From Candidatus Entotheonellaceae bacterium (GTDB taxonomy: Bacteria; Tectomicrobia; Entotheonellia; Entotheonellales; Entotheonellaceae): DNA of 64,000 bases. Position 1 is the stretch's first letter; each line of letters starts with the position of its first letter. Below are positions 3,122 to 34,248 of this stretch, piece by piece. Location of the stretch: contig OZ250173.1 in assembly GCA_965238075.1 (NCBI GenBank), forward strand, positions 1,856,001 to 1,920,000. Direction: 5' to 3'. The notes beneath the pieces were generated by a model. It was not told the DNA's origin and did not search any database. It saw only the letters and a list, made by a program, of their open reading frames with translations. The translations under genes were made by a program, and so were the position numbers.

Positions 3122-3575
3122 ACGCAGCAGGCCGAAAACGTGTCAATATCACCCCTGCAAATTCGTCCGTTCAGGTCTGTCTGGACATGCTAGCCGGGAT
3201 AGGCTAGAGTGCGCCGCACAAACATGGCGGGTCTCCGTCTGTCCTACATGCCCAGTATTGAGCCAACGCCATAACGGTCTTACCTTACAGCCACTTCAAA
3301 ATAGATGTTTATGGCTGGCCAGAAATCCCGCCATGTAGGTCGTCTACCATGATAGATTCATGTTCATGGATGAAGAACTGTAAACTCATGTTGCAATTGG
3401 ATGTCCACAACCAGATTACTGATGAATACTGATCAGATAATTGAGGCCCAATAAGACGTAGCTCCATATTTGTTGTGTCCCCCTTGTTGTACGTAGTCCC
3501 GTGAAACCCTCACAATACCTGGAACTTTCGTGCAGAATTTGCTCATTTTGTCATTCACGAAGGTTTTTCTCAATC

Positions 3576-3584
3576 TGTGGAAAA
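3576..3584 (-). promoter_or_regulatory. consensus DnaA box upstream of dnaA
   Basis: TGTGGAAAA is TTTTCCACA (TTWTNCACA) on the - strand, about 35 bp upstream of the putative dnaA -35. Confidence 0.55.
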
Positions 3585-3619
3585 GCTCAGAGTCATAACG
3601 TGCCGCCTTGGGATGGTTA

Positions 3620-3648
3620 TTGACAAAATGTCTCTGTCGGAATATACA
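3620..3648 (+). promoter_or_regulatory. putative sigma70 promoter of dnaA-minCDE
   Basis: TTGACA-N17-TATACA. Confidence 0.5.
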
Positions 3649-3700
3649 GGCGTGTTTCGTACCTGCACGGGAAGGAAGGCGACTGTATAGGGGTATCACG

Positions 3701-5092
3701 TTGAGCGAGAAGCTATTGGCCGAGAACGAAGCGGGCCATATAGACAGGCGTCGTAATGATGACGCGGAAATAATCTGGCTCAAGGTGCTGCAAATTGTTC
3801 GCGAGCATGTGGACGATACCAAATTCAGCACTTGGTTCAAGCCACTTTACCTGCTCTCGGGCTCAAGCGGCATGTTGCGTGTGGCAGCCCCCAATAAATT
3901 CGTTCGCGACTGGGTTCTTGAGCACTACCACGGTCTGCTCGTTGACTTGTTGCAGCAGATCACTGGTATTCCCTACCAGATTTTTATCGTTGTGGGCGAA
4001 CCAAAGGCCGAGCCTACCCCGCAACCAGAGCCGGCGGCCGAGGTGGTCATGCCACCCAGCGCCAGCAGCGGATACACACAATTCAATTCCCGCTTTACCT
4101 TTGAAACGTTTGTCGTCGGCTCAAGCAATCAGTTTACGCAAGCCGCTTGCCTTGCGGTGTCGCGGCATCCGGCGGGCACGTACAATCCCCTCTTCATATA
4201 CGGCGACGTTGGCTTGGGCAAAACCCACTTGCTGCACGCCATTGGCCACTACGTTCAACAGCACCACCCGCATTTAGTGACCTGCTACGTTTCATCCGAA
4301 AAATTCCTCAATGATCTCGTCGGTGCACTAAGCCATGACAAGATGGAGGATTTCCGTAATCGTTACCGCAGAAACGATGTGATCCTCGTTGATGACGTGC
4401 AGTTTCTCATCGGCAAGGAGCGCACCCAGGAAGAATTTTTTCACACCTTCAACGTGCTGTTCAACGCCAACAAGCAGATCGTGCTGACCAGCGACAAACT
4501 GCCGAAGGCCATGACGGGACTGGAAAAACGTCTGCAGTCACGCTTCGAGTGGGGTCTGGTAACCGATTTGCAGCCGCCGGACCTGGAGACCAAGATCGCC
4601 ATCCTCAAGAGGAAGGCGGAGTACCGACAGTTCGAGTTGCCCGATGACGTGGTGTTGTATATCGCCCGTCTGATTCGCAGCGATGCGCGCAGGCTCGAGG
4701 GCGCGCTCACCACGGTGGAAGCGTTCGCCTCCATAACCGGGCAGGAGATCACCCTCGGACTAGCCAAGAGCTTGCTCGGCGACTTGGCAGAGGGAGAAGA
4801 CAAACCGATCACGATCGCTGAAATCGAGCGCGTCGTCGCGGATCACTATCACATCAAGACTGCCTTACTACGCTCAAAAAGGCGCCACAAGGACATCGCG
4901 CACGCCCGACATGTTGCCATGTACCTGACACGTCAACTGACCGGCGCATCGCTACCGCACATCGGCAAGACGTATGGCGACCGCGATCACACCTCTGTCA
5001 TACACGCCTGTAATAAAATAAAAGGGATGCTAAAGGAAAACTGGAATTTTCAGGAGGAAGTCGAGCAACTCATTCGCGTGCTCCAGAGTTAG
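3701..5092 (+). CDS. dnaA: chromosomal replication initiator DnaA, full length (domains I-IV)
   Basis: Domain I W...FSTWFKPL...APNKFVRDW; FTFETFVVGSSN; YNPLFIYGDVGLGKTHL; VDDVQF; LQSRFEWG; domain IV RHVAMYL...RDHTSV. The start is uncertain (TTG 3701 chosen). Confidence 0.95.
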   Translation: MSEKLLAENEAGHIDRRRNDDAEIIWLKVLQIVREHVDDTKFSTWFKPLYLLSGSSGMLRVAAPNKFVRDWVLEHYHGLLVDLLQQITGIPYQIFIVVGEPKAEPTPQPEPAAEVVMPPSASSGYTQFNSRFTFETFVVGSSNQFTQAACLAVSRHPAGTYNPLFIYGDVGLGKTHLLHAIGHYVQQHHPHLVTCYVSSEKFLNDLVGALSHDKMEDFRNRYRRNDVILVDDVQFLIGKERTQEEFFHTFNVLFNANKQIVLTSDKLPKAMTGLEKRLQSRFEWGLVTDLQPPDLETKIAILKRKAEYRQFELPDDVVLYIARLIRSDARRLEGALTTVEAFASITGQEITLGLAKSLLGDLAEGEDKPITIAEIERVVADHYHIKTALLRSKRRHKDIAHARHVAMYLTRQLTGASLPHIGKTYGDRDHTSVIHACNKIKGMLKENWNFQEEVEQLIRVLQS

Positions 5093-5117: not shown

Positions 5118-5798
5118 ATGTTGAAATCACGAATCAGATTTACGGGCGTGGATTACGGTCTGCTGGTGTGCATGGACTGGGAGGTGCCCCTGTCACAGCT
5201 TCTGGTCGAGGTGGAGGAACACATCCAGAAATCGCCCGCCTTTTTTGCCGATGCAAAAGTATTTCTTGAGGTAGACACGCGGCCAGTTCTACAACACGAA
5301 ATGGAACAACTCGGTGTGGTGCTCGCGCGCTACGGGCTTACATTACAGGGCGTCGTTTCCGCTGCCAGTAGGGTCGAGGGCATCAGCCGGCCCCGGCCCG
5401 CGCCGGAACAACCCAAGGTGATTACGCCGATCATTAACGAAAAAGAGGCCACGGTGGTTGAACACCGCACCGTGCGTTCCGGCGAGAAGGTTGCCTCCGA
5501 AGGCCATCTTATCATCATGGGCGATGTCAACCCTGGGGCCGAGGTCATCGCCGAAAATAACATCATCGTTTGGGGTTCCCTCAAGGGTACGGCCTACGCC
5601 GGCGTGCCCAATCACGAGGACGCCGTGATTGCCGCGCTGCATCTCTCTCCCATTCAATTGCGAATCGCCGGATACATTGCCCGGTCGCCTGATGTGCGAC
5701 CGGTGACGACGGCGGTTCCCGAGTTGGCACGCATCGACCAGAACGAAATCGTGGTCGAATCCTGGGAGCGAGGCCGAGTCTCTCAAAAAGGGGGATAG
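5118..5798 (+). CDS. minC: septum site-determining protein MinC
   Basis: RTVRSGE..GHLIIMGDVNPGAEVIAENNIIVWGSLKG beta-helix. It lies directly upstream of minD. Confidence 0.92.
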   Translation: MLKSRIRFTGVDYGLLVCMDWEVPLSQLLVEVEEHIQKSPAFFADAKVFLEVDTRPVLQHEMEQLGVVLARYGLTLQGVVSAASRVEGISRPRPAPEQPKVITPIINEKEATVVEHRTVRSGEKVASEGHLIIMGDVNPGAEVIAENNIIVWGSLKGTAYAGVPNHEDAVIAALHLSPIQLRIAGYIARSPDVRPVTTAVPELARIDQNEIVVESWERGRVSQKGG

Positions 5799-5801
5799 TC
5801 T

Positions 5802-6602
5802 GTGGCGGGACAAGTTATCACCATAACTTCCGGCAAGGGAGGGGTTGGCAAAACCACTCTGAGTGCCAACGTCAGCGCAGCGCTTGCCAAGCTCGGCAAA
5901 AAGACGATCGCGGTGGATACGGATGTGGGGCTGCGTAATCTGGACATCGTCATGGGCTTGGAAAATCGCATCGTCTTCGACCTGGTCGACGTGGTGGAGG
6001 GGCGTTGCGACCTTTCAAAGGCCTGTATCCGCGACAGGCGCATCCCCTCTCTACAGTTGCTACCGGCAGCCCAAACACGTGACAAGACTGCGGTGAGCCC
6101 AAATGCTATGCGCAAGGTTTGCGACGATCTGCGGTCGCTTTGCGACTACGTCATCATTGACTCGCCAGCGGGTATCGAAAACGGTTTCGAAACAGCCACT
6201 ATCGGTGCTGATAACGTCATCATCGTCGTGACGCCGCACGTCTCATCGGTCCGTGATGCCGACCGCGTCATTGGCTTGCTGGAGTCGCGCGACAAACACG
6301 ATATTCACCTCGTGATCAACCGTCTGCAGCCGGAAATGGTGCGCCGCGGCGACATGCTCGGCATCAACGACATAATAGAAATTCTGGCAGTCGACCTCTT
6401 GGGCATCGTTCCTGAGGACGAATACATCGTTGTGTCCAGCAACCGCGGTGAGCTGGCCACCCTGAACCCCGACGAGTCGCCAGCCGGTCAGGAGTATCAG
6501 AACATCGCACGGCGCATGCAGGGTGAGGAAGTGCCGTTTATGACGATCGACGACAAGGCGAATATGTTTCAACGGCTGTTTCGTATGTTCAAAAGCAAAT
6601 AA
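5802..6602 (+). CDS. minD: septum site-determining ATPase MinD
   Basis: SGKGGVGKTT, DVGLRNLD, DSPAGIE, and a C-terminal amphipathic helix MFQRLFRMF. Confidence 0.96.
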   Translation: MAGQVITITSGKGGVGKTTLSANVSAALAKLGKKTIAVDTDVGLRNLDIVMGLENRIVFDLVDVVEGRCDLSKACIRDRRIPSLQLLPAAQTRDKTAVSPNAMRKVCDDLRSLCDYVIIDSPAGIENGFETATIGADNVIIVVTPHVSSVRDADRVIGLLESRDKHDIHLVINRLQPEMVRRGDMLGINDIIEILAVDLLGIVPEDEYIVVSSNRGELATLNPDESPAGQEYQNIARRMQGEEVPFMTIDDKANMFQRLFRMFKSK

Positions 6603-6640
6603 CCCGCCACCCCGGATACCTCCTGCAAAGGGGCTCCCCC

Positions 6641-6988
6641 GTGAAGAAACTCATCAGCAAAATCTTTGGATTCGGCCTGTCGGAGGACGATGCTCCCCAC
6701 CCAAGCAGACAGGCAGCGCGAGAGCGTTTGAAATTGGCTTTGACATACGACCGCGCGAGCATCGGTTACAACGCCCTGGAACGACTGCGTGACGAAATCA
6801 TCCAGGTAATTGCCAAACACCTGGACCTCGACCAGGAAGACATTACCATCCAACTCGACCGCACCATGGATCAGGACAAGCTGATCGCCAGCATTCCACT
6901 GCGCATCAACACTCGATCACACGGTTCAAAATCACCCGTCACCATGAAGGCCATGCCGCGCCCTTCCACGCGGCGGCGCCGGCGTTAG
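6641..6988 (+). CDS. minE: cell division topological specificity factor MinE
   Basis: SRQAARERLKLALTYDR...LRDEIIQVIAKHL...LIASIP. It follows minD. Confidence 0.9.
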   Translation: MKKLISKIFGFGLSEDDAPHPSRQAARERLKLALTYDRASIGYNALERLRDEIIQVIAKHLDLDQEDITIQLDRTMDQDKLIASIPLRINTRSHGSKSPVTMKAMPRPSTRRRRR

Positions 6989-10971: not shown

Positions 10972-12147
10972 ATGCTTGACTTGATGGAGGTGAATCAGCA
11001 AATCACCAAGATGGCTACTGAGAGGCATCTCGTTGCCGATGACATGGCCAAACGGCTCGCCTTGGCCGTGGAACGCCTGCATCTGGAATCCGCCCGCTGG
11101 CAGGAATTCGTTGACAAACTTGCGATGAGCAAGACCTCCTGGTTGGTTGCCACCATTCACGAGCCTCTCAACCGCACCTACGACCTGCCGCCGCGCCCCG
11201 AGACGGTCACCGTCGTGGCCGCTGACGGTTCGCAAATCATGCCGAGCCATCACGAGGTGATACCGGCTTTTCTGCTCAATATCGCCACGGTCGTCCTACA
11301 CTACGGCAACGGTGGAGGAGCAGCGTTTACCAGCACGCCAAGCCTGTTTTATCGTGACGAGGACCTGTACCTGGATTACGGCGGCGAGCGCGTGCAGGTA
11401 ACCGGTGACCTGCTGGGCATGCGCCGGACGCTGATGGAATTCGGCAGCCTTATCGAACAGGCGGTCGCCGCCCGCAAGGGTGGCGATGTTGTTTGTGCGC
11501 TTAGTGACGGCAGTCTGATTCTCTGGCAGCTCGAGGGGCGACCGCCGGATTACCAGGAATCCATGCTGACGGATTATCTGGCATGTCTTGATCAGGGCAA
11601 CCATCAAGACGTTCCGATCATTGGCTACATCAGTCGGCCACGCAGCCGCGACGTTGTGAACGCCTTGCGGGTTGGGCTTTGCCCCGAAGACGCCCCGAAC
11701 TACGATCGCTGCCCGTACGAACAGGATGAGCGACCGCCGTGTGCGCAGATCGAGGGGCTGACGGATCGCCGCCTTTTCGCCAATCTCCTGAAGGCGGGTG
11801 AGCGCTCCCAGGTCTTTGGCAGCACGTCCCGAATCCTCAGCAAGTACGGGGTGCACCGCATCGGCTTTTTCTATCTTCACGTGGGGTCGGAGATTGTGCG
11901 TATCGAGTTGCCGCAATGGGTCGGCGCAAACGCCGCGCTGCTTGATCTGGTCCATGCCGTCGCCTATGATCAGGCCCAGAAAGGCATGGGCTATCCGGTT
12001 GCCTTGGCTGAGGCCCATCAGCAAGCCGTGGTGCGGGGCGCCGAACGCGATCTATTTTACGACATGGTAACCGCCGTGTTCCGGCAACGTGGCGCACCCA
12101 TGGCCGTGTCACCCAAAAACCTTCGCAAACGCAGAATGACGGTGTAG
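10972..12147 (+). CDS. nurA: NurA-family 5'-3' nuclease
   Basis: VVAADGSQ, LSDGSL, GYISRP and C-terminal GYPVALAEAHQQAVV. It lies upstream of the HAS barrel gene and herA. Confidence 0.88.
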   Translation: MLDLMEVNQQITKMATERHLVADDMAKRLALAVERLHLESARWQEFVDKLAMSKTSWLVATIHEPLNRTYDLPPRPETVTVVAADGSQIMPSHHEVIPAFLLNIATVVLHYGNGGGAAFTSTPSLFYRDEDLYLDYGGERVQVTGDLLGMRRTLMEFGSLIEQAVAARKGGDVVCALSDGSLILWQLEGRPPDYQESMLTDYLACLDQGNHQDVPIIGYISRPRSRDVVNALRVGLCPEDAPNYDRCPYEQDERPPCAQIEGLTDRRLFANLLKAGERSQVFGSTSRILSKYGVHRIGFFYLHVGSEIVRIELPQWVGANAALLDLVHAVAYDQAQKGMGYPVALAEAHQQAVVRGAERDLFYDMVTAVFRQRGAPMAVSPKNLRKRRMTV

Positions 12148-12747: not shown

Positions 12748-14406
12748 ATGGATAACGTGCAGAAGGGCAGACGGCGCGTCGGCGTGATCGTCAACGGCTC
12801 CCTGATTAACGGTTTGGAGATGAAGCTGGACGAATGGTACTCCGTGGAGGACATTCGCGCCGGCCGGTTCGTGGTCATCGAAGGCGAGAAGAGCTGCTTC
12901 TTTTGCATGGTCACCGACGTGCGTCTCGACACCACCAACCCCCAGGTGCTGGCCGACCCGCCCGACGAGGCGGAAGAGCTCATGCGCCAGGTGCTGCACG
13001 GCACGACGACCTACGGCACCGTCTGCCTGCGCCCCCTCCTGATGACGGAGAAGGACGACGTTGTCGGCGACAGACCGGGGGAACCCCACCTCGTCAAAAC
13101 CATCCCCATTCACTTTTCCGTAGTCGGCGAGGCCGAAGAGGAAGACGTCAACCACATCTTTGGCCACGAGGGCAACCCCCGCTATTTTCACATCGGCCAA
13201 CCTCTGGACATGGATACGCCGGTCTGCATCGACTTGGAAAGCTTTATCGAGCGCAGCAACGGGATTTTCGGCAAGACGGGCACCGGCAAGACCTTCCTGA
13301 CCCGCCTGATGCTGGCGGGCCTGATTCATAAAGACCGTGCAGTCAACCTCATCTTCGACATGCACAGCGAATACGGCTGGCAGGCGACGCAGGAATCCGG
13401 CAGCGGCGGGCGGCAGGGATTCGTCAAGGGCCTGAAGCAACTCTTCGGCAGCAAGGTAGCCATCTTTACCATCGATCCCGAGTCGGCCCGGCGGCGCGGC
13501 GTGCAGAGCGATTTTGTGGTCAACATCCCTTACAGCCAGATCACCGTGGAAGACATCGCCTCTCTGTCAGACGAGCTCAACCTGCACCCAACCGCGGTGG
13601 AATCGGCGTACTTGATATGGAACAAGCACGGGCGCGAGTGGCTATCCACCCTGCTAAGCCAGGAGCCTGAGCAGATCAAGGACTTTGCCGACAACGTTGG
13701 CGCACACCCGGAATCCATTTCGGCCCTCCACCGCAAGCTCAAACGCCTGGAAAAATTCGACTTTCTGCAAAAGCAGGTGCACGAGGACGCCGTCTACAAA
13801 ATCATGGAGTTCCTTGGCAAGGGCATGCACATCGTCCTGGAATTCGGCCAACAAAGCAGCTTCCTGTGCTACATGCTGGTCGCCAACATCCTGACCCGCC
13901 GCATCCACGACCTCTACGTCAGGAAAACCGAGCAATACCTCGCCACCCACCAGCCGCAGGACAAGCCGAAGCAGCTCATCATCACCATCGAAGAGGCGCA
14001 CAAGTTTCTCAACCCGGTTGCCGCCCGACAGACCATCTTCGGTACCATTGCGCGTGAAATGCGCAAGTATTTCGTCTCCCTGCTCATTGTCGATCAGCGG
14101 CCCTCCAGTATCGATGATGAAATCCTGTCGCAGGTGGGCACCCGCATCACCGCGCTGTTGAACGACGAGAAGGACATTGGCGCCGTGCTCACCGGCGTCA
14201 GCAACGCCAGTTGGCTACGCGGCGTCCTGGCAAGCCTGGATTCCAAGCAACAAGCCCTGCTCATGGGACACGCCGTGCCGATGCCGGTCGTCATCCGCAC
14301 GCGAGACTACAATCCCGCCTTTTACAGCGCGCTGGGGTACGTGGAGGGCGAGGACCTGACCCGCAAAGCCGAGTCCAACATCGCGGATCTGTTCGGCGAC
14401 CGGTAG
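12748..14406 (+). CDS. herA: HerA helicase/translocase (DUF87 ATPase)
   Basis: N-terminal HAS barrel, Walker A GKTGTGKT, FDMHSEY, Walker B IEEAH, AREMRK and DQRP. Confidence 0.9.
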   Translation: MDNVQKGRRRVGVIVNGSLINGLEMKLDEWYSVEDIRAGRFVVIEGEKSCFFCMVTDVRLDTTNPQVLADPPDEAEELMRQVLHGTTTYGTVCLRPLLMTEKDDVVGDRPGEPHLVKTIPIHFSVVGEAEEEDVNHIFGHEGNPRYFHIGQPLDMDTPVCIDLESFIERSNGIFGKTGTGKTFLTRLMLAGLIHKDRAVNLIFDMHSEYGWQATQESGSGGRQGFVKGLKQLFGSKVAIFTIDPESARRRGVQSDFVVNIPYSQITVEDIASLSDELNLHPTAVESAYLIWNKHGREWLSTLLSQEPEQIKDFADNVGAHPESISALHRKLKRLEKFDFLQKQVHEDAVYKIMEFLGKGMHIVLEFGQQSSFLCYMLVANILTRRIHDLYVRKTEQYLATHQPQDKPKQLIITIEEAHKFLNPVAARQTIFGTIAREMRKYFVSLLIVDQRPSSIDDEILSQVGTRITALLNDEKDIGAVLTGVSNASWLRGVLASLDSKQQALLMGHAVPMPVVIRTRDYNPAFYSALGYVEGEDLTRKAESNIADLFGDR

Positions 14407-22164: not shown

Positions 22165-23808
22165 TCATCGAGGTACGGCTTGAAAGATCTCCACGACAGC
22201 TTCCTTGAAAGCAAGTTTGTTCTTCTGCATGTCCTCTAAGGTGGACTCGCCGGAGTTGGTTGCGGCGGCGCCGGGGGTCGGAGCGATGTCCGGCTCTGGC
22301 TCTAGTAAAGGTTCGATAGCCACATGAAAGTCCGGTCCGAAAAGCTCCTGGGCGATTTCCCGGATCGTGGCGAGGTTTTCAGGCTCGCTTAATGTCGACA
22401 GATGGAACGCGTCGCGTTCGCGTATGCCAACCGTCAACTTGTTGTCCTGACTGGAAACGACGGTGCCCTGCTCCAGACAACCCGCCAACGAGGGGCGTTT
22501 CCGTGCAACCCGCTCCTGCAACATGGGCCAGGGGTCACCTTCGGATGAAGGCGGCGCCTCGGACGCTGTAGCAACAGTTGATTCCGACGCTGACGATTCA
22601 TGCACCGCGCTCGCAGCCGGCTCGGGGGCGGCTGCAGGGTAGGAGGTCGGCGGCGGCGACGGAGCTTGATCGTCGCCATACTGTTGCAGGTAGTCCAGCA
22701 CCGATTGCAGCGGCTGCACCCGGCCAATGCAAGCCATTCGCACCAGTGCCATTTCGAGAATCAGCATCGGATTGCTAGCATACCGCAGCGACCCTTCCGC
22801 CGTTGACAGCGTGTGAAACTGCCCGTAGATCTCCTCCGGGCTAACCGCGTCCGCAATACGGCGCAACGCCGTCATGTCTGACTCCGACAACGGGATTAAA
22901 CTCTCCGGATGCGGCACCGTCTTGAGCACAATGAGATGGCGCAGCGCCTCCAGCAGCGCCTTCATGATACTGCCGGCCTCATAACCCTCCATCTGTAGCT
23001 GGCCGACGGTATGTAAAGCCATTTCAGCGTCCTGTCTGAACAAGGCGCCCAGACAAGCCACCAACGGTTCGCTGCCCACGTGCCCGAGGAGCTGCCGCAC
23101 GTCGTCATCCTGAATCTCCGTGCCACAGAAGGCAATAACCTGATCGAGTAGACTCTGGCTGTCACGCATGCTGCCCTCAGCGGCTCGCGCAATATGCGCC
23201 AAGCTGGTCGGCGATATGGTGATGCCCTCGCTTTGCGTGATGGAGGCCAGTTGTGCGCAGATACCCGTGAGGGAGACGCGCTTGAACTCGAACCGCTGGC
23301 AGCGGGAGACAATGGTGAGGGGGATTTTTTCCAACTCGGTGGTGGCGAAGACGAACACGACGTGGGGCGGCGGCTCCTCAAGCGTCTTGAGCAGCGCGTT
23401 AAACGCCTCCTTGGTCAACATGTGGACTTCATCAATGATGTAAATCTTGTAGCGCCCGCCGGACGGCAGGTAGCGCAACTGCTCACGCAGGTCACGTATC
23501 TCGTCGATGCCGCGGTTGGAAGCGCCGTCGATTTCAATGATGTCCAGGTAGGAACCTTGCGTGATTTCTTGGCAGGATCGGCAGGTGTTGCACGGTTGAA
23601 CGGTGGGGCCTTGCTCACAATTGAGGGCTTTGGCCAGCAGGCGGGCCATGGTGGTTTTGCCGACGCCGCGGGTACCCGAGAACAGGTAGGCGTGGGCGAC
23701 GCGGTTGAGTTGGATGGCGTTTTTCAGGGTTCGGGTGACGTGTTGCTGCTCGACGACGTCGTCGAATGTTTGGGGGCGCCATCTCCGTGCGGTGACTTGG
23801 TACCCCAT
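22165..23808 (-). CDS. dnaX: DNA polymerase III subunit gamma/tau
   Basis: [42 protein letters not shown] and GSMRD. Confidence 0.96.
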
Positions 23809-23853
23809 AGATATCTCCATCAGCATCGACTGCAGTGGACCGCGATTCCAGAC

Positions 23854-24126
23854 GGCCGTGCACCCAGTCTCGACCTACCGGGACGAAACGCCGCTTCCCA
23901 TAGCGAGCTCAGATCAGGCACTCCTGCGGCCCCCGAGGAAAGCTGCTTACGGCTGCTTCCTTCCGGACCTGACCGGGTTCACAACGCCTCGTGGCACAGG
24001 ACCCAACCTTCAAAGCTGTTTATGGGGCGAACCTTCCGCCCGATGGGGCCTCAACATGAGGAATTCCGTCCCGCTATAGCGGATTGCGGGTTACAGGGCA
24101 CCGCTACCTCCCCACCTAGCACGACC
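23854..24126 (-). ncRNA. ffs: large (Alu-domain-containing) bacterial SRP RNA
   Basis: The minus strand begins GGTCGTGCTAGGTGGGGAGGTAGCGGTGCCCTGT (Bacillus scRNA-like Alu), contains helix 8 GTCAGGTCCGGAAGGAAGCAGC, and ends GGGTGCACGGCC. It sits in the usual position upstream of dnaX. Confidence 0.92.
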
Positions 24127-24152
24127 TTTCTTGCGCTCTTCACGCTGGTGAA

Positions 24153-24240
24153 CGGAGAGGGTGGGATTCGAACCCACGGGGCGCTTTTGGCACCCACGCG
24201 CTCTCCAGGCGCGCCGATTCGACCGCTCTCGCACCTCTCC
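24153..24240 (-). tRNA. tRNA-Ser(GGA)
   Basis: GGAGAGG acceptor, anticodon arm CGCGC-CTGGAGA-GCGCG, long variable arm and GGTTCGAATCC. No encoded CCA. Confidence 0.93.
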
Positions 24241-24261
24241 TCTTCACTGGCGACAAAAAAG

Positions 24262-24346
24262 CGGAGAGAGAGGGATTTGAACCCCCGGTACCCGTAGGTA
24301 CAGTTGATTTCGAATCAACCGCCTTCAACCGCTCGGCCATCTCTCC
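24262..24346 (-). tRNA. tRNA-Ser(CGA)
   Basis: GGAGAGA acceptor, anticodon arm GTTGA-TTCGAAA-TCAAC, variable arm and GGTTCAAATCC. Confidence 0.92.
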
Positions 24347-24390
24347 GTGGTTGCTGGTTCCGCGTGTGCATGCGGCGGCAATGCGTTGGG

Positions 24391-24882
24391 CTAAACGCCG
24401 CACCACCGCGCGCTCTGCGAACGCTGTTGCTGACGTAAGTTCCGAAAGAACGCGCTGAGCAAAACGCTACATTCCGCCTCGCAGACGCCGCTAACGACCG
24501 GAAATGTGTGATTGAGTCGTTGGCTACCCAGGATGTCGAATTGCGAGCCGCAGGCACCGGCCTTCGGGTCGTGACAGCCAAACACGAGCCGCGCAATTCG
24601 GCTCAGAATCGCGGCGCCGAGACACATGATACAGGGTTCAAGGGTGACGTACAAGACGGCCCCAGTGAGGTACCAAGTGCCCATTTTCTGGGCTGCCTGG
24701 CGCAGCGCCAACACCTCCGCGTGGGCTGTCGGATCGCCCAGCGCCTGCCGCTGGTTGCAACCCCGGCCGACGATCACGTCATCCACGACGACAACCGCCC
24801 CGACCGGCACGTCCGCGGCATGCAACGCTTTGCGCGCCTCGCCCAACGCCGCTTGCATGAAGTGTTGGTGATCGACTTGCAC
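24391..24882 (-). CDS. tadA: tRNA adenosine-34 deaminase TadA
   Basis: [33 protein letters not shown] and FFRNLR. Start GTG 24882 follows AGGAAG. Confidence 0.93.
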
Positions 24883-24909
24883 GGCTGCGGGACTTCCTGA
24901 CGTTCGGGG

Positions 24910-24945
24910 AAAAAAGAAGGGCACCCTTTTTCAGGAGGTGCCCTT
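24910..24945 (-). terminator. intrinsic terminator-like hairpin after tRNA-Arg
   Basis: On the minus strand, AAGGGCACC...GGTGCCCTT is followed by CTTTTTT. Confidence 0.65.
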
Positions 24946-24955
24946 GCGTGGGAAA

Positions 24956-25029
24956 CGCGCCGAAGAGGAGTTGAACCCCCAGCCTCCAGATCCGTAGTCT
25001 GGCGCTCTATCCAATTGAGCTACCGGCGC
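24956..25029 (-). tRNA. tRNA-Arg(ACG)
   Basis: GCGCCGGTAGCTCAATTGGATAGAGCG, anticodon arm CCAGA-CTACGGA-TCTGG and GGTTCAACTCC. Confidence 0.93.
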
Positions 25030-25044
25030 TCAGGAGCAATGTGA

Positions 25045-25134
25045 CGGAGAGGGAGGGATTCGAACCCTCGTAGCACTTTTTAGGCGCTAAATCGCTTAGC
25101 AGGCGATCACCTTCAGCCGCTCGGTCACCTCTCC
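25045..25134 (-). tRNA. tRNA-Ser(GCT)
   Basis: Anticodon arm ATCGC-CTGCTAA-GCGAT, long variable arm and GGTTCGAATCC. Confidence 0.93.
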
Positions 25135-25176
25135 AGGGTATGAACGGATGTGCGCGATTCGACGTGAGTGGAGCCA

Positions 25177-25260
<84 letters not shown>

Positions 25261-31587: not shown

Positions 31588-32688
31588 TCAGACCCGCATT
31601 GGCATGATAACGTAGAAGAACGCATCGCTGCCGGACGGCCGGAGAATAACCGGGTTGACCGCGTCGGTAAGTTCCAGGCATACGTCGTTTTCAGTAGTAA
31701 CGGCCAGTACTTCCATCAAATAGCGGGCGTTAAAACCGATTGTCAGGTTATCGCCTTGATAGTCGGTTGAAATCTGATCGGTCGCCTCACCCATTTCCGG
31801 CGTGTTGGAACACAACGTGAGGTGTTGTGGGTCGAAGTCGATACGCACCGGCCGAGTTTTTTCGTTGGACAGGAGTGAAACGCGTCGCAGGGCTCGTAGC
31901 AGGCCCTCGTGGGCAACGGTTGCGGTAGCCTTGTGCTCTTTCGGAATAACACCCTGATAATCCGGGAACTGGCCTTCGATGAGGCGGGTCACCAGAGTGG
32001 CGCGGTCTTTACGGAAGACTAAATGGTTAGGCAGAACCGCGATTTCTATCTTTTCGGACTCGCCATCGGCGGAGAAGCGGCTGACTTCCTCAAGCGCTTT
32101 GCGGGGAACGATGACCTGTAAGGTCTTGTCCAGGCCCATCGCTTGTTTGACGTGTGCCAGTCGATGACCATCCGTAGCCACCATGGTCATATTACCGTTT
32201 TCGCAGGTCATCAACACGCCGCTGAGCGTATAGCGTGTTTCGTCATGCGAAGTCGCGAAAACCGTATGGCGAATCATATCGTCAAAGACGTTGCTATCGA
32301 TCTCGGTGAACTCGGCTTCGTCGATTGGAGGCAGAGCAGGATATTCCTCCGCCGGTAAGCAGGGAACCTTGAACTTGGATACGCCTGAAGTCAGATGTGC
32401 CCAGCCTTCGCTGCTAACCGCTAGATTGACAGGCTCGCCGGCTGGCAGTTCGCGCAGGATGTCATAGGTCTTGCGAGCTGGGAGTGTCGTCGTTCCGGGT
32501 TGGTTCACCGTTGTATCCAAGTAGCCCTTGTAGCCCAGTTCGAGGTCGGTGGCATGAATCACGGTTTCATTGCTGATCGCGGTCAACAGAAAATGGGACA
32601 GGATGGGTAGGGTGTTCTTCCGCTCGACAATGCCCTGTATCTTCTGCAAACCCTTCAGGAAAATATCTTGGCTGATGGTGAGGTTCAT
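31588..32688 (-). CDS. dnaN: DNA polymerase III beta sliding clamp
   Basis: TLPILS, ATDLE, VATDGHRL, LIEGQFPDY, IGFNARYL and VIMPMR. Confidence 0.97.
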   Translation of the reverse strand: MNLTISQDIFLKGLQKIQGIVERKNTLPILSHFLLTAISNETVIHATDLELGYKGYLDTTVNQPGTTTLPARKTYDILRELPAGEPVNLAVSSEGWAHLTSGVSKFKVPCLPAEEYPALPPIDEAEFTEIDSNVFDDMIRHTVFATSHDETRYTLSGVLMTCENGNMTMVATDGHRLAHVKQAMGLDKTLQVIVPRKALEEVSRFSADGESEKIEIAVLPNHLVFRKDRATLVTRLIEGQFPDYQGVIPKEHKATATVAHEGLLRALRRVSLLSNEKTRPVRIDFDPQHLTLCSNTPEMGEATDQISTDYQGDNLTIGFNARYLMEVLAVTTENDVCLELTDAVNPVILRPSGSDAFFYVIMPMRV

Positions 32689-32699
32689 GATTTGTTTTT

Positions 32700-32880
32700 C
32701 TCCTGCCTCTTAAAATTAAATAGTAGTAAACTTAAATCCGATGAATATGTGAAGAAAGGTCCCAACCCTTTCTTGATACGGCGTTTTCCTTGTGAGTAAA
32801 TTTTCCCCTGTGGATAAATTCTTATCCACACACCCGATGCGCCTGCGCTTGTGGAAAACTGATATTCGTGATTTCCACAT
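32700..32880. other. oriC: replication origin oriC (DnaA boxes, DnaA-trios, AT-rich unwinding element)
   Basis: Perfect boxes at 32809-32817 (TGTGGATAA), 32822-32830 (TTATCCACA) and 32850-32858 (TGTGGAAAA). One-mismatch boxes at 32748-32756, 32791-32799 and 32871-32879. TAGTAGTAA trios at 32721-32729 sit next to an AT run, directly upstream of dnaN. Confidence 0.85.
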
Positions 32881-33880
32881 CTGTATTTGCAAGTGTTTTA
32901 CGCAGCACACGAACCGTCCCCGCGAGACCTGCATCGCTGTTTAGCAAATCGCTGATCCTCCGATAAGCATGCTGAACCGTAGCCGTGCTACGACCGCCAA
33001 ATAGCCGGCCGATCTCCGGTAATGGTACATCGGTCAGTTCCTGGCACAGGTACATAGCAATTTGCCGCGGTATGAGGACAGCGTGGTCGCGATGTTTAGC
33101 CTTGATCTCCGATACCTTCACGCCAAAATAGCTGGCAACAGTTTGTTGGATGACCGAAATCTGGTGCTGATTCGTTGTGTGCGTCTGGCGTAACATGTCG
33201 CTGATGAGTCCATCATCAATGGAGCTGTCGTGCAACGAGGCATACGTTGCCAAGCGGGTCAGGCTGTTCTCCAGTTCTCGAATGTTCATCTGTGAATTCG
33301 ATGCGATGCGACTCGCTACGCTGTCGGGCAATGAGATATGGTAAGCGGCAGCTTTCTGGCGGAGGATGGCCAAGCGTGTTTCCAGTTCCGGAGGCTGAAT
33401 CTCGACGATGACCCCGCAACTCAACCGCGACTGTAGGCGCAAATCAAGGGATGTGATGTCCTGAGGTGTGGTCGTGCTCGCCATGACGATCTGTTTGCCG
33501 GTATTCAGCAGAACATCGAGGGTATGCAGCAGCGTTTGCTGCGTGTAGCTCTTACCGGCGATGTCCTGGATGTCGTCTACAAGCAGGATGTCCGTCTTCA
33601 GATACTGGCTACGCAGCGTCTCGATACGGCCATTTTGCAAAGCGTTGTGTAGTTTGTGGCTGAGGCTGTCAGGTGTCAGATAGGTGGTCTGCCAAGCGGG
33701 TTTACTTTCACTGAGGTGGTGGCCGATGGCAAGCAGCAAATGGGTTTTGCCCAAGCTGTCTCCCGCCCGAATAAGCAACGGATTATATGCGGCGGCAGGG
33801 TCGTTGGCGACGGCCAGGGCGGCTTGGTATGCGAGTCGGTTGGAGGGGCCGACTATGAAGTTGATGAATGTATGATTCAT
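32822..33880 (-). CDS. divergent DnaA paralog lacking domains I-II
   Basis: HTFINFIVGPSN, YNPLLIRAGDSLGKTHLL, VDDIQ, LQSRL, NIRELE and RQIAMYL..EIGRLFGGRSTATV. At most 48 in-frame codons precede the AAA+ domain. Confidence 0.88.
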   Translation of the reverse strand: MNHTFINFIVGPSNRLAYQAALAVANDPAAAYNPLLIRAGDSLGKTHLLLAIGHHLSESKPAWQTTYLTPDSLSHKLHNALQNGRIETLRSQYLKTDILLVDDIQDIAGKSYTQQTLLHTLDVLLNTGKQIVMASTTTPQDITSLDLRLQSRLSCGVIVEIQPPELETRLAILRQKAAAYHISLPDSVASRIASNSQMNIRELENSLTRLATYASLHDSSIDDGLISDMLRQTHTTNQHQISVIQQTVASYFGVKVSEIKAKHRDHAVLIPRQIAMYLCQELTDVPLPEIGRLFGGRSTATVQHAYRRISDLLNSDAGLAGTVRVLRKTLANTDVEITNISFPQAQAHRVCG

Positions 33881-34013
33881 GATGTCAGGGAGGATTGTGG
33901 TGACTGAAGGGAAGGTAGCATCAGGACAGTAGAAATTCACATTTTGCACAGGCCGAATACTAGCAAATTTATCGTTCTCTGACAAAGTCTTATTGCATCT
34001 TCTCAGGCGTTTC

Positions 34014-34043
34014 TTGACACCCACTTAGCGTGGGTGATACCCT
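34014..34043 (+). promoter_or_regulatory. putative rpmH promoter
   Basis: TTGACA-N18-TACCCT with an extended -10 TG. Confidence 0.45.
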
Positions 34044-34095
34044 CTGCCTTCTCAAACCACATATTTCCATTTTCATACAGGTTACTCCAAAACCC

Positions 34096-34248
34096 ATGAA
34101 ACGGACCTATCAACCGAAGAGGGTGAAGAGGCTGCGGAAGCACGGCTTCCGTGCCCGGATGGCGACCAAGGAGGGTCGTCGCGTGCTACGGAGGCGGCGC
34201 CTCAAAGGCCGGTGGCGTTTGGCCGTCACGGCTAGTCGCAACGATTGA
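34096..34248 (+). CDS. rpmH: 50S ribosomal protein L34
   Basis: [35 protein letters not shown]. Confidence 0.97.

Follow-up and report, generated by a model that had tools for sequence, protein, structure and literature searches.

Which DnaA starts replication in a bacterium that encodes two of them, and what is the other one for? This question is raised by a 64,000-nucleotide stretch of a Candidatus Entotheonellaceae genome (contig OZ250173.1, forward-strand positions 1,856,001 to 1,920,000), which was analysed as a whole and is called the window here. Between rpmH and dnaN it encodes a short DnaA paralogue of 352 amino acids that has domains III and IV only (32822..33880 including the stop codon, minus strand). 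A canonical full-length DnaA of 463 amino acids with domains I-IV is encoded about 29 kb away (3701..5092, plus strand). Nearly all bacteria are taken to have a single dnaA copy whose product is a four-domain initiator. Our results suggested that this bacterium probably starts replication with one DnaA, the full-length one, and modulates it with the other.

The short gene begins with ATG at 33880 and ends with TAA at 32822-32824. Upstream of the ATG its frame stays open for only 48 more codons, to a GTG at 34024 with a TAA directly before it, and rpmH starts at 34093 on the opposite strand, 212 bases from the ATG. Pfam detected the DnaA ATPase domain PF00308 (Bac_DnaA) at residues 2-159 (6.4e-48) and the DNA-binding domain PF08299 (Bac_DnaA_C) at residues 242-309 (1.2e-25), and no domain I (PF11638, DnaA_N) in this protein. 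The original prediction, made from the letters and their open reading frames alone, had described a DnaA-like gene in the rpmH-dnaN slot without room for domains I-II, and it was exact in its coordinates and in the 48 upstream codons. With 364.9 bits against a cut-off of 343.9, the short protein passes the DnaA equivalog profile TIGR00362, aligning to model positions 107-437 of 437 only. The Hda profile TIGR03420 gave 82.2 bits, below its cut-off of 194.8.

The fold was modelled with AlphaFold2 from a 28-row alignment. The mean predicted local distance difference test score (pLDDT) was 81.9 and the predicted template modelling score was 0.60; residues 336-352 stayed below a pLDDT of 50, so the tail of the protein is predicted to be disordered. 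The best Foldseek matches of the model in the PDB were 8btg, B. subtilis DnaA in the origin-opening complex (2.5e-27), and then the Aquifex DnaA structures 1l8q, 3r8f and 2hcb, with Hda structures ranked far under DnaA (8e-11 versus 2.5e-27). A split gene with a separately encoded domain I was also considered. We searched the 903 stop-to-stop open reading frames of the window with a profile of domain I made from full-length relatives. Only the full-length dnaA was matched (4.8e-40; next best E=1.5), which rules out a split gene within the window.

The full-length dnaA lies in an open reading frame of 3608-5092, and TTG at 3701 was taken as its start from the position where close relatives begin. 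Its product carries DnaA_N, Bac_DnaA and Bac_DnaA_C in Pfam, aligns over the whole TIGR00362 model with 526 bits, has the signature RDHTSV, and is canonical at all functional residues that we tested. It shares 37% identity with the short protein over 329 residues. minC (5118-5798), minD (5802-6602) and minE (within 6641-6988) follow directly on the same strand (5118..6988). A complete DnaA with this signature beside minCDE, about 29 kb from the short gene, had been predicted, and it is indeed present.

Short proteins of this kind form a family. The closest 51 protein clusters share 55-98% identity with the short protein and are 288-375 amino acids long, 38 of them exactly 352, and PF11638 was found in none of the 51. 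Their alignment shows a common N-terminus, M-[NDK]-x-T-F-x-N-F. A next group of about 334 amino acids, at roughly 45-51% identity, begins with the similar motif M-x-x-T-F-x-N-F; one query from it (P0060) matched more than 90 clusters of 332-344 amino acids. Matches bearing domain I first appear at about 45% identity to the short protein of the window. Six clusters of the group of about 334 residues are named: two Candidatus Tectomicrobia, one Candidatus Tectimicrobiota, two Entotheonella (Candidatus Entotheonella factor ETSY1_16885 and Candidatus Entotheonella gemina ETSY2_50570) and one candidate division KSB1. Judged by these few named members, the short domain-I-less form appears to be a family found mainly in Tectomicrobia. 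The KSB1-labelled protein (P0397; 368 amino acids, 78% identity to P0060) is the only one of the six named outside Tectomicrobia, and its label could reflect mis-binning or transfer.

Among 50%-identity representatives the 352-residue clade is a single entry (P0047), and nearly all of the other 149 best matches have at least 430 amino acids. A scan of genome contigs kept 80 loci among the matches listed, and all of these were ordinary full-length DnaAs, 37-46% identical and from other phyla. In 79 of these 80 listed loci the frame is open for 86 codons or more upstream, and the exception (L014) is cut by a contig end. The library of representatives also held other architectures. Proteins of 650-700 amino acids (P0244, P0245, P0247 and P0250) were among the best matches to the short protein. 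These four have two tandem DnaA ATPase domains and no domain I; a helix-turn-helix was found in P0244 and none at E<=1e-4 in the other three. P0243 and P0248 were noted alongside them, and two proteins of about 1900 amino acids showed two stretches matching the short protein.

The coexistence of short and full-length DnaA is seen directly in the window. For three further short/full-length pairs an identical length of the longest contig is listed (P0034/P0127, 103,114 bases; P0079/P0179, 180,180 bases; P0411/P0150, 199,965 bases). Judging from these table columns, in which a chance match is very unlikely, three further contigs appear to carry both genes, and both short types appear beside a full-length DnaA (on the contigs of 180,180 and 199,965 bases). 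Relatives of the full-length protein are either very close, in a tight group with 87-98% identity, or belong to a broad group with 65-75%, among them a 'Candidatus Tectimicrobiota' protein at 68%, or are Nitrospinota proteins at about 50%. By these similarities the window belongs to a Tectomicrobia-related lineage.

Which functions has the short protein kept? Residues are numbered as in E. coli through an alignment with the annotated K-12 gene; B. subtilis positions come from an ungapped phmmer alignment to 8btg, in which window residue i corresponds to i+112. Counts were made in 49 members of the 352-residue clade, 32 of the group of about 334 residues, 94 full-length partners and 103 general DnaAs of 430-520 amino acids. 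The ATP site of the clade is well kept, with G177, K178, T/S179 and D235 in 49/49 and D236 in 47/49. So are the box VII arginines (R281 in 48/49; R285, the arginine finger, in 49/49) and sensor II R334 (42/49). In domain IV, R399 and R407 are present in all 49 members and H439 in 43. The position of K243 (B. subtilis K222) is K or R in 48/49, and that of B. subtilis R202 is likewise kept in 48/49. The window protein itself has K178/T179, D235/D236, R281/R285 and R334, in agreement with the predicted retention of Walker B, arginine finger and sensor II. Its Walker A motif differs, with A39 at G172 and S42 at G175. The Ala, already pointed out in the original prediction, is the norm of the clade (A in 45/49, against G in 101/103 general DnaAs), and Ser at G175 occurs in only 5/49. 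A P-loop with Ala at the first position still fits the general pattern.

The Asp-His pair that reads the DnaA box is gone. In the 1j1v structure paper R399, D433, H434 and T435 reportedly make the base contacts of domain IV with the box. D433 is S in 42 members of the clade and D in none (D in 92/103 general DnaAs), H434 is T in 34, A in 13 and H in none (H in 101/103), and T435 is A in 24, S in 16 and T in 9 (T in 65 and S in 28 of 103). The window protein has S298, T299 and A300 at these three positions, which is the predicted change of RDHTTV to RSTATV. Passages of PMC13451751, which refer to E. coli data, name the same four residues as contacting DnaA-box bases.

Positions that handle nucleotide and single-stranded DNA are also altered. 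D269 of sensor I, which serves tight nucleotide binding, is T in 45 and D in 0 of 49 (D in 100/103 general DnaAs). R227 and L290 are needed for unwinding-competent contacts; R227 is L in 36/49 (R in 101/103) and L290 is V or A in 44/49 (L in 96/103). F239 became D or E in 48/49 (F in 97/103). The hydrophobic residue of the initiator-specific motif, V211 (B. subtilis I190), is H in 48/49 (I or V in 98/103). The B. subtilis N187 position is H in 42 and Y in 6 of 49 (N in 95/103), R245 is Y or H in 48/49 (R in only 48/103), and E249 (B. subtilis E228) is T, M, A, V or L in 46/49 (E in 100/103). According to passages of PMC3287180, R285 is the arginine finger, and binding of the single-stranded unwinding element requires V211 (H motif) and R245 (B motif). 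Passages of PMC10721633 report that B. subtilis N187, I190, I193, R202 and E228 form or flank a dinucleotide pocket capturing DnaA-trio bases, that their alanine substitutions are severely defective, and that K222 touches the DNA backbone. All 94 full-length partners are canonical at every position replaced in the clade.

The group of about 334 residues differs from the 352-residue clade in this respect. It keeps G172, a hydrophobic residue at the V211 position, R227 (31/32), F239, D269 (30/32), D433 (30/32), H434 (32/32) and the signature RDH[TS]TV. Its own replacements, each in 21/32, put R in place of N187, Q in place of R202 and A in place of E228. Sensor II R334 is present in only 10 of its 32 members (S in 10, H in 5, G in 3, A in 2), with the box-reading residues intact, and ATP may be bound by these proteins without being hydrolysed.

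An unrooted tree of 65 rows and 334 columns, covering domains III-IV only, was built in IQ-TREE (LG+C20+F+G4, careful search). The rows were 10 proteins of the 352-residue clade, 11 of the type of about 334 residues, 4 other short proteins, 12 full-length relatives, 5 named DnaAs, 22 scanned loci and E. coli DnaA, selected from the 49, 32 and 94 proteins above and the 80 loci. In this tree all 23 short-family rows stand on one side of a split against all full-length DnaAs (100/100, length 0.384). Two short proteins (P0344 and P0354), probably truncated calls, are placed with ordinary DnaAs. The 352-residue clade is monophyletic (100/100), has a long stem of 0.725 and is nested inside the short family. 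Beside it, with weak support (85/60), stands P0295, a protein of 323 amino acids with the signature R-N-S-S-T-V (Asp-His lost), a canonical Walker A and no tail, which may be an intermediate towards the clade. The full-length DnaA of the window clusters with Tectimicrobiota-type proteins (100/100), whose sister group is the Nitrospinota DnaAs (100/98), so it looks vertically inherited. In the free tree the short family lies outside all full-length DnaAs, as an ancient paralogue would. The approximately unbiased test did not reject a tree uniting the short family with the Tectimicrobiota-type full-length clade (log-likelihood difference 16.0, p=0.138), and a lineage-specific duplication in the phylum followed by acceleration is possible.

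The short protein evolves 4-6 times faster than its partner, as measured by tree paths in two pairs. The path from the window to the contig of 103,114 bases is 0.416 substitutions per site for the short proteins (P0001-P0034) and 0.066 for the full-length ones (P0002-P0127); to the contig of 180,180 bases it is 1.327 and 0.350, respectively. At the same time, 47 of 333 columns are invariant in the clade (n=49) and 124 of 333 are at least 90% conserved. Columns that vary in the clade tend to vary in canonical DnaAs too (Spearman correlation of column entropies 0.57, p=1.2e-29). In 17 columns the clade is fixed (at least 85%) to a residue other than the one fixed in canonical DnaAs. The conservation pattern is that of a folded, functioning protein under changed constraint and not of decay, as far as sequences can tell. 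The neutral evolution that was named with the original prediction as an objection is contradicted by the 47 invariant columns, the catalytic residues kept in 49/49 and the 17 fixed clade-specific replacements. A further feature of the clade is a set of seven Phe of canonical DnaAs (E. coli F169, F206, F222, F250, F251, F254 and F286) that are Leu in it and stay Phe in the full-length partner.

Where, then, does replication start? The gene order around the short gene is of the origin type, with gyrA, gyrB, recF, dnaN and the short dnaA on the minus strand and rpmH, rnpA, yidD, yidC, mnmE and mnmG on the plus strand. We searched the window for the DnaA box consensus TTATCCACA. Boxes with at most one mismatch are not above chance in the 64 kb (7 found, 5.65 expected), and three of the seven, including both perfect ones of the window, fall in 32809-32858. 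The densest 300-bp stretch holds six boxes with at most two mismatches (32748-32879), against a window mean of 0.46 and a next-best value of 4. From the short gene towards dnaN these are a two-mismatch 9-mer at 32871..32879 (plus), a one-mismatch box, TTTTCCACA, at 32850..32858 (minus), a perfect box at 32822..32830 (plus), a perfect box at 32809..32817 (minus) that lies 4 nt past the stop codon and forms an inverted pair with the former, and two-mismatch 9-mers at 32791..32799 and 32748..32756 (both minus). Between this cluster and dnaN (31588..32688, minus strand) lies the most AT-rich 40-mer of the window (32711..32750, 80% A+T), a candidate unwinding element, and the 2-kb window 32001-34000 has the lowest G+C of 32 such windows (0.518). 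GC skew showed no clear minimum inside the 64 kb.

The DnaA-trio check gave a plus-strand reading near 32720 as three 3'-[G/A]AT-5' trios, at least about 20 nt from the nearest (weak) box; the search rules in passages of PMC8287927 allow a spacing of 0-16 bp between box and trio. We infer a dnaA-dnaN-type origin at the box cluster and the AT-rich stretch, from which the genes diverge. The two DnaAs had been predicted to have swapped roles, and half of this holds. The full-length gene away from the slot is the vertically inherited-looking DnaA (100/98 with Nitrospinota), but the origin, with its boxes and AT-rich DNA, is still at the canonical slot.

Three of the six clustered boxes sit inside the last 20 codons of the short gene. 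These codons (32825..32884, minus strand) encode a tail specific to the clade, residues 333-352; in the alignments the group of about 334 residues and the canonical DnaAs end before it. The 9-mer at 32871..32879 overlaps the Val-Glu codons, the box at 32850..32858 spans the Phe-Pro-Gln codons, and the perfect box at 32822..32830 equals Cys-Gly-TAA, the last two codons and the stop. F-P-Q is present in the tail of 48/49 members, and the lone exception, F-P-H, would keep the box. The standard tail occurs in 40/49, where V(-18), F, P, Q and C(-2) are each found in 40/40 and position -1 is G in 36 and E in 4; a Glu codon GAA there would give a permitted box variant with T at the fifth position. 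These invariant positions are the box codons in the window DNA, and the remaining tail positions vary freely. Six members end one residue past F-P-Q (five of 345 amino acids, and P0003 of 368) and two end four residues past it. We infer that the reading frame ran on into the box cluster and that the conserved tail motif was imposed by the DNA element. The preference for Q over H (48:1) is not predicted by a pure box constraint and weakens this DNA-level reading. Beyond the original prediction, the short form appears, from its few named members, to be a mainly Tectomicrobia family, its single-strand-binding residues are altered, and its 3' end is built of DnaA boxes.

How could the two proteins work together? 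Because everything an initiator needs is present in the full-length DnaA and the boxes are canonical, this protein is the likely initiator. It would bind the boxes at 32748-32879, in and just past the 3' end of the short gene, and open the adjoining AT-rich stretch before dnaN. The short protein would be a neofunctionalised paralogue that binds ATP, docks through its AAA+ faces onto a canonical DnaA protomer and inserts its arginine finger into the ATP site of the neighbour. Having no domain I it would not recruit the helicase, having lost Asp-His it would not read canonical boxes, and its single-strand pocket would be remodelled. It might cap the DnaA oligomer at the origin by joining its end, and so limit or terminate it, as a clamp-independent functional analogue of Hda that is tethered to DNA. 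Passages of PMC5448010 report that domains III-IV alone unwind oriC in vitro but that DnaA without its N-terminal part sustains neither viability nor replication in vitro. We consider the chances about even that the short protein docks on and modulates the canonical DnaA complex as an ATP-dependent accessory subunit. That its effect is a limiting or capping, negative one is a more tentative proposal. Its earlier description as a non-initiating regulator or co-polymerising subunit likewise fits the residue pattern, since the ATP site and the arginine finger persist despite the loss of domain I, Asp-His, the hydrophobic residue of the initiator-specific motif and the sensor-I Asp. This description stands as a suggestion.

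The AAA+ domain of the short protein was modelled in complex with the AAA+ domain of the full-length DnaA, with ATP and Mg, together with three controls. The median score was 0.41 and that of the best control 0.00, which speaks weakly for the contact. The runs agreed in at least 95% of contacts, and the pLDDT of the partner was at least 83. The mark used for this score is reached by 58/80 solved complexes and by 2/110 mismatched pairs.

Several points weigh against this accessory-subunit reading. The model of the pair supports it weakly; among complexes at the mark, scores of at most 0.60 were obtained by only 7 of the 80 solved complexes and by both passing mismatches. Solved DnaA-DnaA oligomers exist (2hcb, 8btg), and the predicted complex may echo these known structures. 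Whether the protein inhibits or helps is judged solely by which residues are lost. The loss of R245 counts for little, because R is found there in only 48/103 canonical DnaAs, and some single-strand contact may survive in the short protein, as the K243 and R202 positions are kept in 48/49 each. Variation at the recognition-helix position T435 (A 24, S 16, T 9) fits a lost specificity or a new one that is still shifting. ATP hydrolysis may be non-essential, with R334 missing in 7/49.

Other explanations have to be weighed against the same evidence. The short protein could be a positive co-initiator, a 'filler' subunit that lengthens or stabilises a mixed oligomer in which full-length protomers do the box reading, strand capture and helicase recruitment. 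Its ATP site, both box VII arginines and the scaffold arginines of domain IV are kept, its gene is at the origin, and the weak support from the complex prediction (0.41 against 0.00 for the best control) would serve a helper as well. Domains III-IV of E. coli DnaA suffice for oriC unwinding in vitro in the passages of PMC5448010, and the sister group of about 334 residues keeps the box-reading residues (D433 in 30/32, H434 in 32/32), so an ancestral short form could have been a co-initiator. In the 352-residue clade, however, the residues for box positioning (D433, H434) and strand capture (the V211/I190, N187 and E228 positions) are replaced, R227 (L in 36/49) and L290 (V/A), with their role in unwinding, are changed, and it is not obvious how a filler without a place on boxes would be positioned. 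We regard a co-initiator as unlikely. An independent DNA-binding regulator, that is a transcription factor or site-specific binder with a new specificity in domain IV that does not touch canonical DnaA, is improbable in our estimate. DnaA also acts as a transcription factor, and a helix-turn-helix scaffold with R399 and R407 invariant in 49/49 and replaced base-contacting positions is what such a regulator might look like. Yet the replaced positions are small and variable in the clade (S/N/A; T/A; A/S/T), unlike a conserved reading head, and no repeated non-box motif beyond the inverted box pair was found in 32650-34150. The arginine finger (49/49) and R281 (48/49) also point to AAA+ oligomer contacts.

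Decay could also account for the fast evolution. The short gene might be an old origin-linked dnaA that was superseded and whose frame stays open only through constraints in cis, namely the boxes in its 3' end and the promoter or read-through for dnaN. Evolution 4-6 times faster than in the partner, the loss of many initiator-specific residues, the lack of an evident Shine-Dalgarno-like sequence before the ATG and the coincidence of conserved tail residues with box codons all suit a relic. But a relic would hardly keep 47 invariant and 124 near-invariant of 333 columns in sequences down to 55% identity, or the catalytic Lys, Walker B Asp and arginine finger in 49/49. Its replacements are fixed to one residue (H in 48/49, T in 45/49, D/E in 48/49) and not scattered, its site entropies track those of functional DnaAs, and the length of 352 amino acids is kept in 38 of the 51 closest clusters. 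Decay is accordingly very improbable. An assembly error or a recent truncation of an ordinary dnaA, finally, is hardly credible. All 51 closest clusters, drawn from several sources that include contigs of about 4 Mb, share one N-terminus and lack domain I, and more than 90 further clusters of 332-344 amino acids form the sister group. It had been noted at the outset that relatives might encode a full-length protein here; the closest relatives of the protein are short too, all 51 of them (288-375 amino acids) being without PF11638.

How does the short protein compare with known systems? With canonical bacterial DnaA (TIGR00362; E. coli, B. subtilis 8btg, Aquifex 1l8q/2hcb) it shares the fold of domains III and IV, the rpmH-dnaA-dnaN slot beside boxes, a TIGR00362 score above the cut-off, Walker A Lys/Thr, Walker B, R281, R285, R399 and R407. 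It differs in having no domains I-II, in the replaced box-reading Asp-His, sensor-I Asp and hydrophobic residue of the initiator-specific motif, in its 20-residue tail of predicted disorder, in evolving 4-6 times faster and in coexisting with a canonical DnaA. With Hda/HdaA, the inactivator of DnaA-ATP in Proteobacteria, it shares the origin from DnaA, an AAA+ domain with an arginine finger, the lack of domain I and the coexistence with DnaA; docking would be a proposed analogy. Hda lacks domain IV and acts on the clamp, which it binds by a motif at its N-terminus. In contrast, domain IV is present in the short protein, and only 3 residues precede its conserved T-F-x-N-F, with no space for such a motif. 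The claim that the Hda-type clamp motif is missing was correct in this sense, for the protein begins M-N-H directly before T-F-I-N-F and leaves no room for it.

The domain-I-less DnaAs of about 334 residues (Entotheonella factor ETSY1_16885, E. gemina ETSY2_50570 and metagenome-assembled genomes) share the start motif and the lack of domains I-II. They have no tail, and they keep G172, the V211 position, R227, F239, D269 and RDH[TS]TV, all of which are changed in the 352-residue clade. As far as is known, both chlamydial DnaA proteins are full-length. Two dnaA genes per genome, as here, are described for Chlamydiales in passages of PMC2878342, and a difference is that both Waddlia copies are unlinked to the GC-skew minimum. 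The engineered N-terminally truncated E. coli DnaA in passages of PMC5448010 has the same architecture of domains III-IV; the window protein is natural, conserved in a clade, paired with a full-length DnaA and altered in its DNA-reading and strand-binding residues.

A literature search, with most subscription-journal papers outside it, turned up no account of a DnaA that naturally lacks domain I and is encoded at the origin in company with a canonical one. Searching DnaA with Tectomicrobia returned nothing, and Entotheonella with DnaA nothing relevant by title and abstract among the papers listed. Searches for DnaA paralogues or two copies led to Chlamydiales, Wolbachia typing alleles and E. 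coli alleles only, and searches for truncated or domain-I-lacking DnaA led to engineered truncations and reviews only. The short gene belongs to a DnaA paralogue family with a derived branch that is probably regulatory. A natural DnaA of domains III-IV only at the origin together with a canonical DnaA is an evolutionary experiment on splitting the functions of DnaA between two proteins. Known DnaA brakes (Hda, YabA, SirA and others) are lineage-specific, and this could be an independent origin of an Hda-like regulator.

Taken jointly, the observations would describe an undescribed two-protein DnaA system in Tectomicrobia and their kin, with a domain-I-less paralogue encoded at the origin and a canonical DnaA elsewhere. 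In the lineage of the window the paralogue would have ceased to read boxes and to capture DnaA trios. It would now be dedicated to terminating the initiator oligomer, dependent on ATP, as an independently evolved Hda-like brake without the clamp. Its frame would have run on into the origin, so that three boxes are read as conserved tail residues and the stop lies inside a perfect box. As a whole, this scenario is possible but doubtful. The overlap of coding tail and DnaA boxes may be a compact case of protein conservation imposed by a DNA element. There is also a consequence for annotation. Proteins of the short family are named 'chromosomal replication initiator protein' in source databases and pass the TIGR00362 equivalog cut-off, and the origin-linked 'dnaA' of these genomes is probably not the initiator. 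Origin predictors keyed on dnaA would therefore still land in the right place, for the wrong reason.

The surroundings of the two genes gave some further observations. A promoter-like site, TTGTCA-17-TAGTAT with TG (33985..33957, minus strand), lies about 70 nt upstream of the ATG of the short gene. Just past the -10 element of this site comes a relaxed DnaA box, TTTTGCACA (33942-33950, plus strand; site 33942..33985); both are leads only. By eye, no Shine-Dalgarno-like sequence is evident before this ATG, and dnaN has one. A terminator hairpin 3' of the short gene was considered and dropped, as the fold was no better than shuffles (z = -0.92) and a consensus scan found none there. rpmH (34093..34248, plus strand) is divergent from the short gene. 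Near the full-length dnaA, 3401-3625 holds one DnaA-box-like 9-mer with one mismatch (3576..3584, minus strand, upstream of the gene) and two with two mismatches, upstream of and at the start of the gene, which may serve its autoregulation. Beyond minCDE come lexA, radA and recA, directly followed by a gene for a NurA-domain protein (2e-36; 10972-12147, plus strand). The next large open reading frame, 12748-14406, could encode a HerA-like partner. A large signal recognition particle RNA (191 bits) and five tRNA genes lie at 23856-25260 (minus strand), between dnaX (22165-23826) and gyrA.

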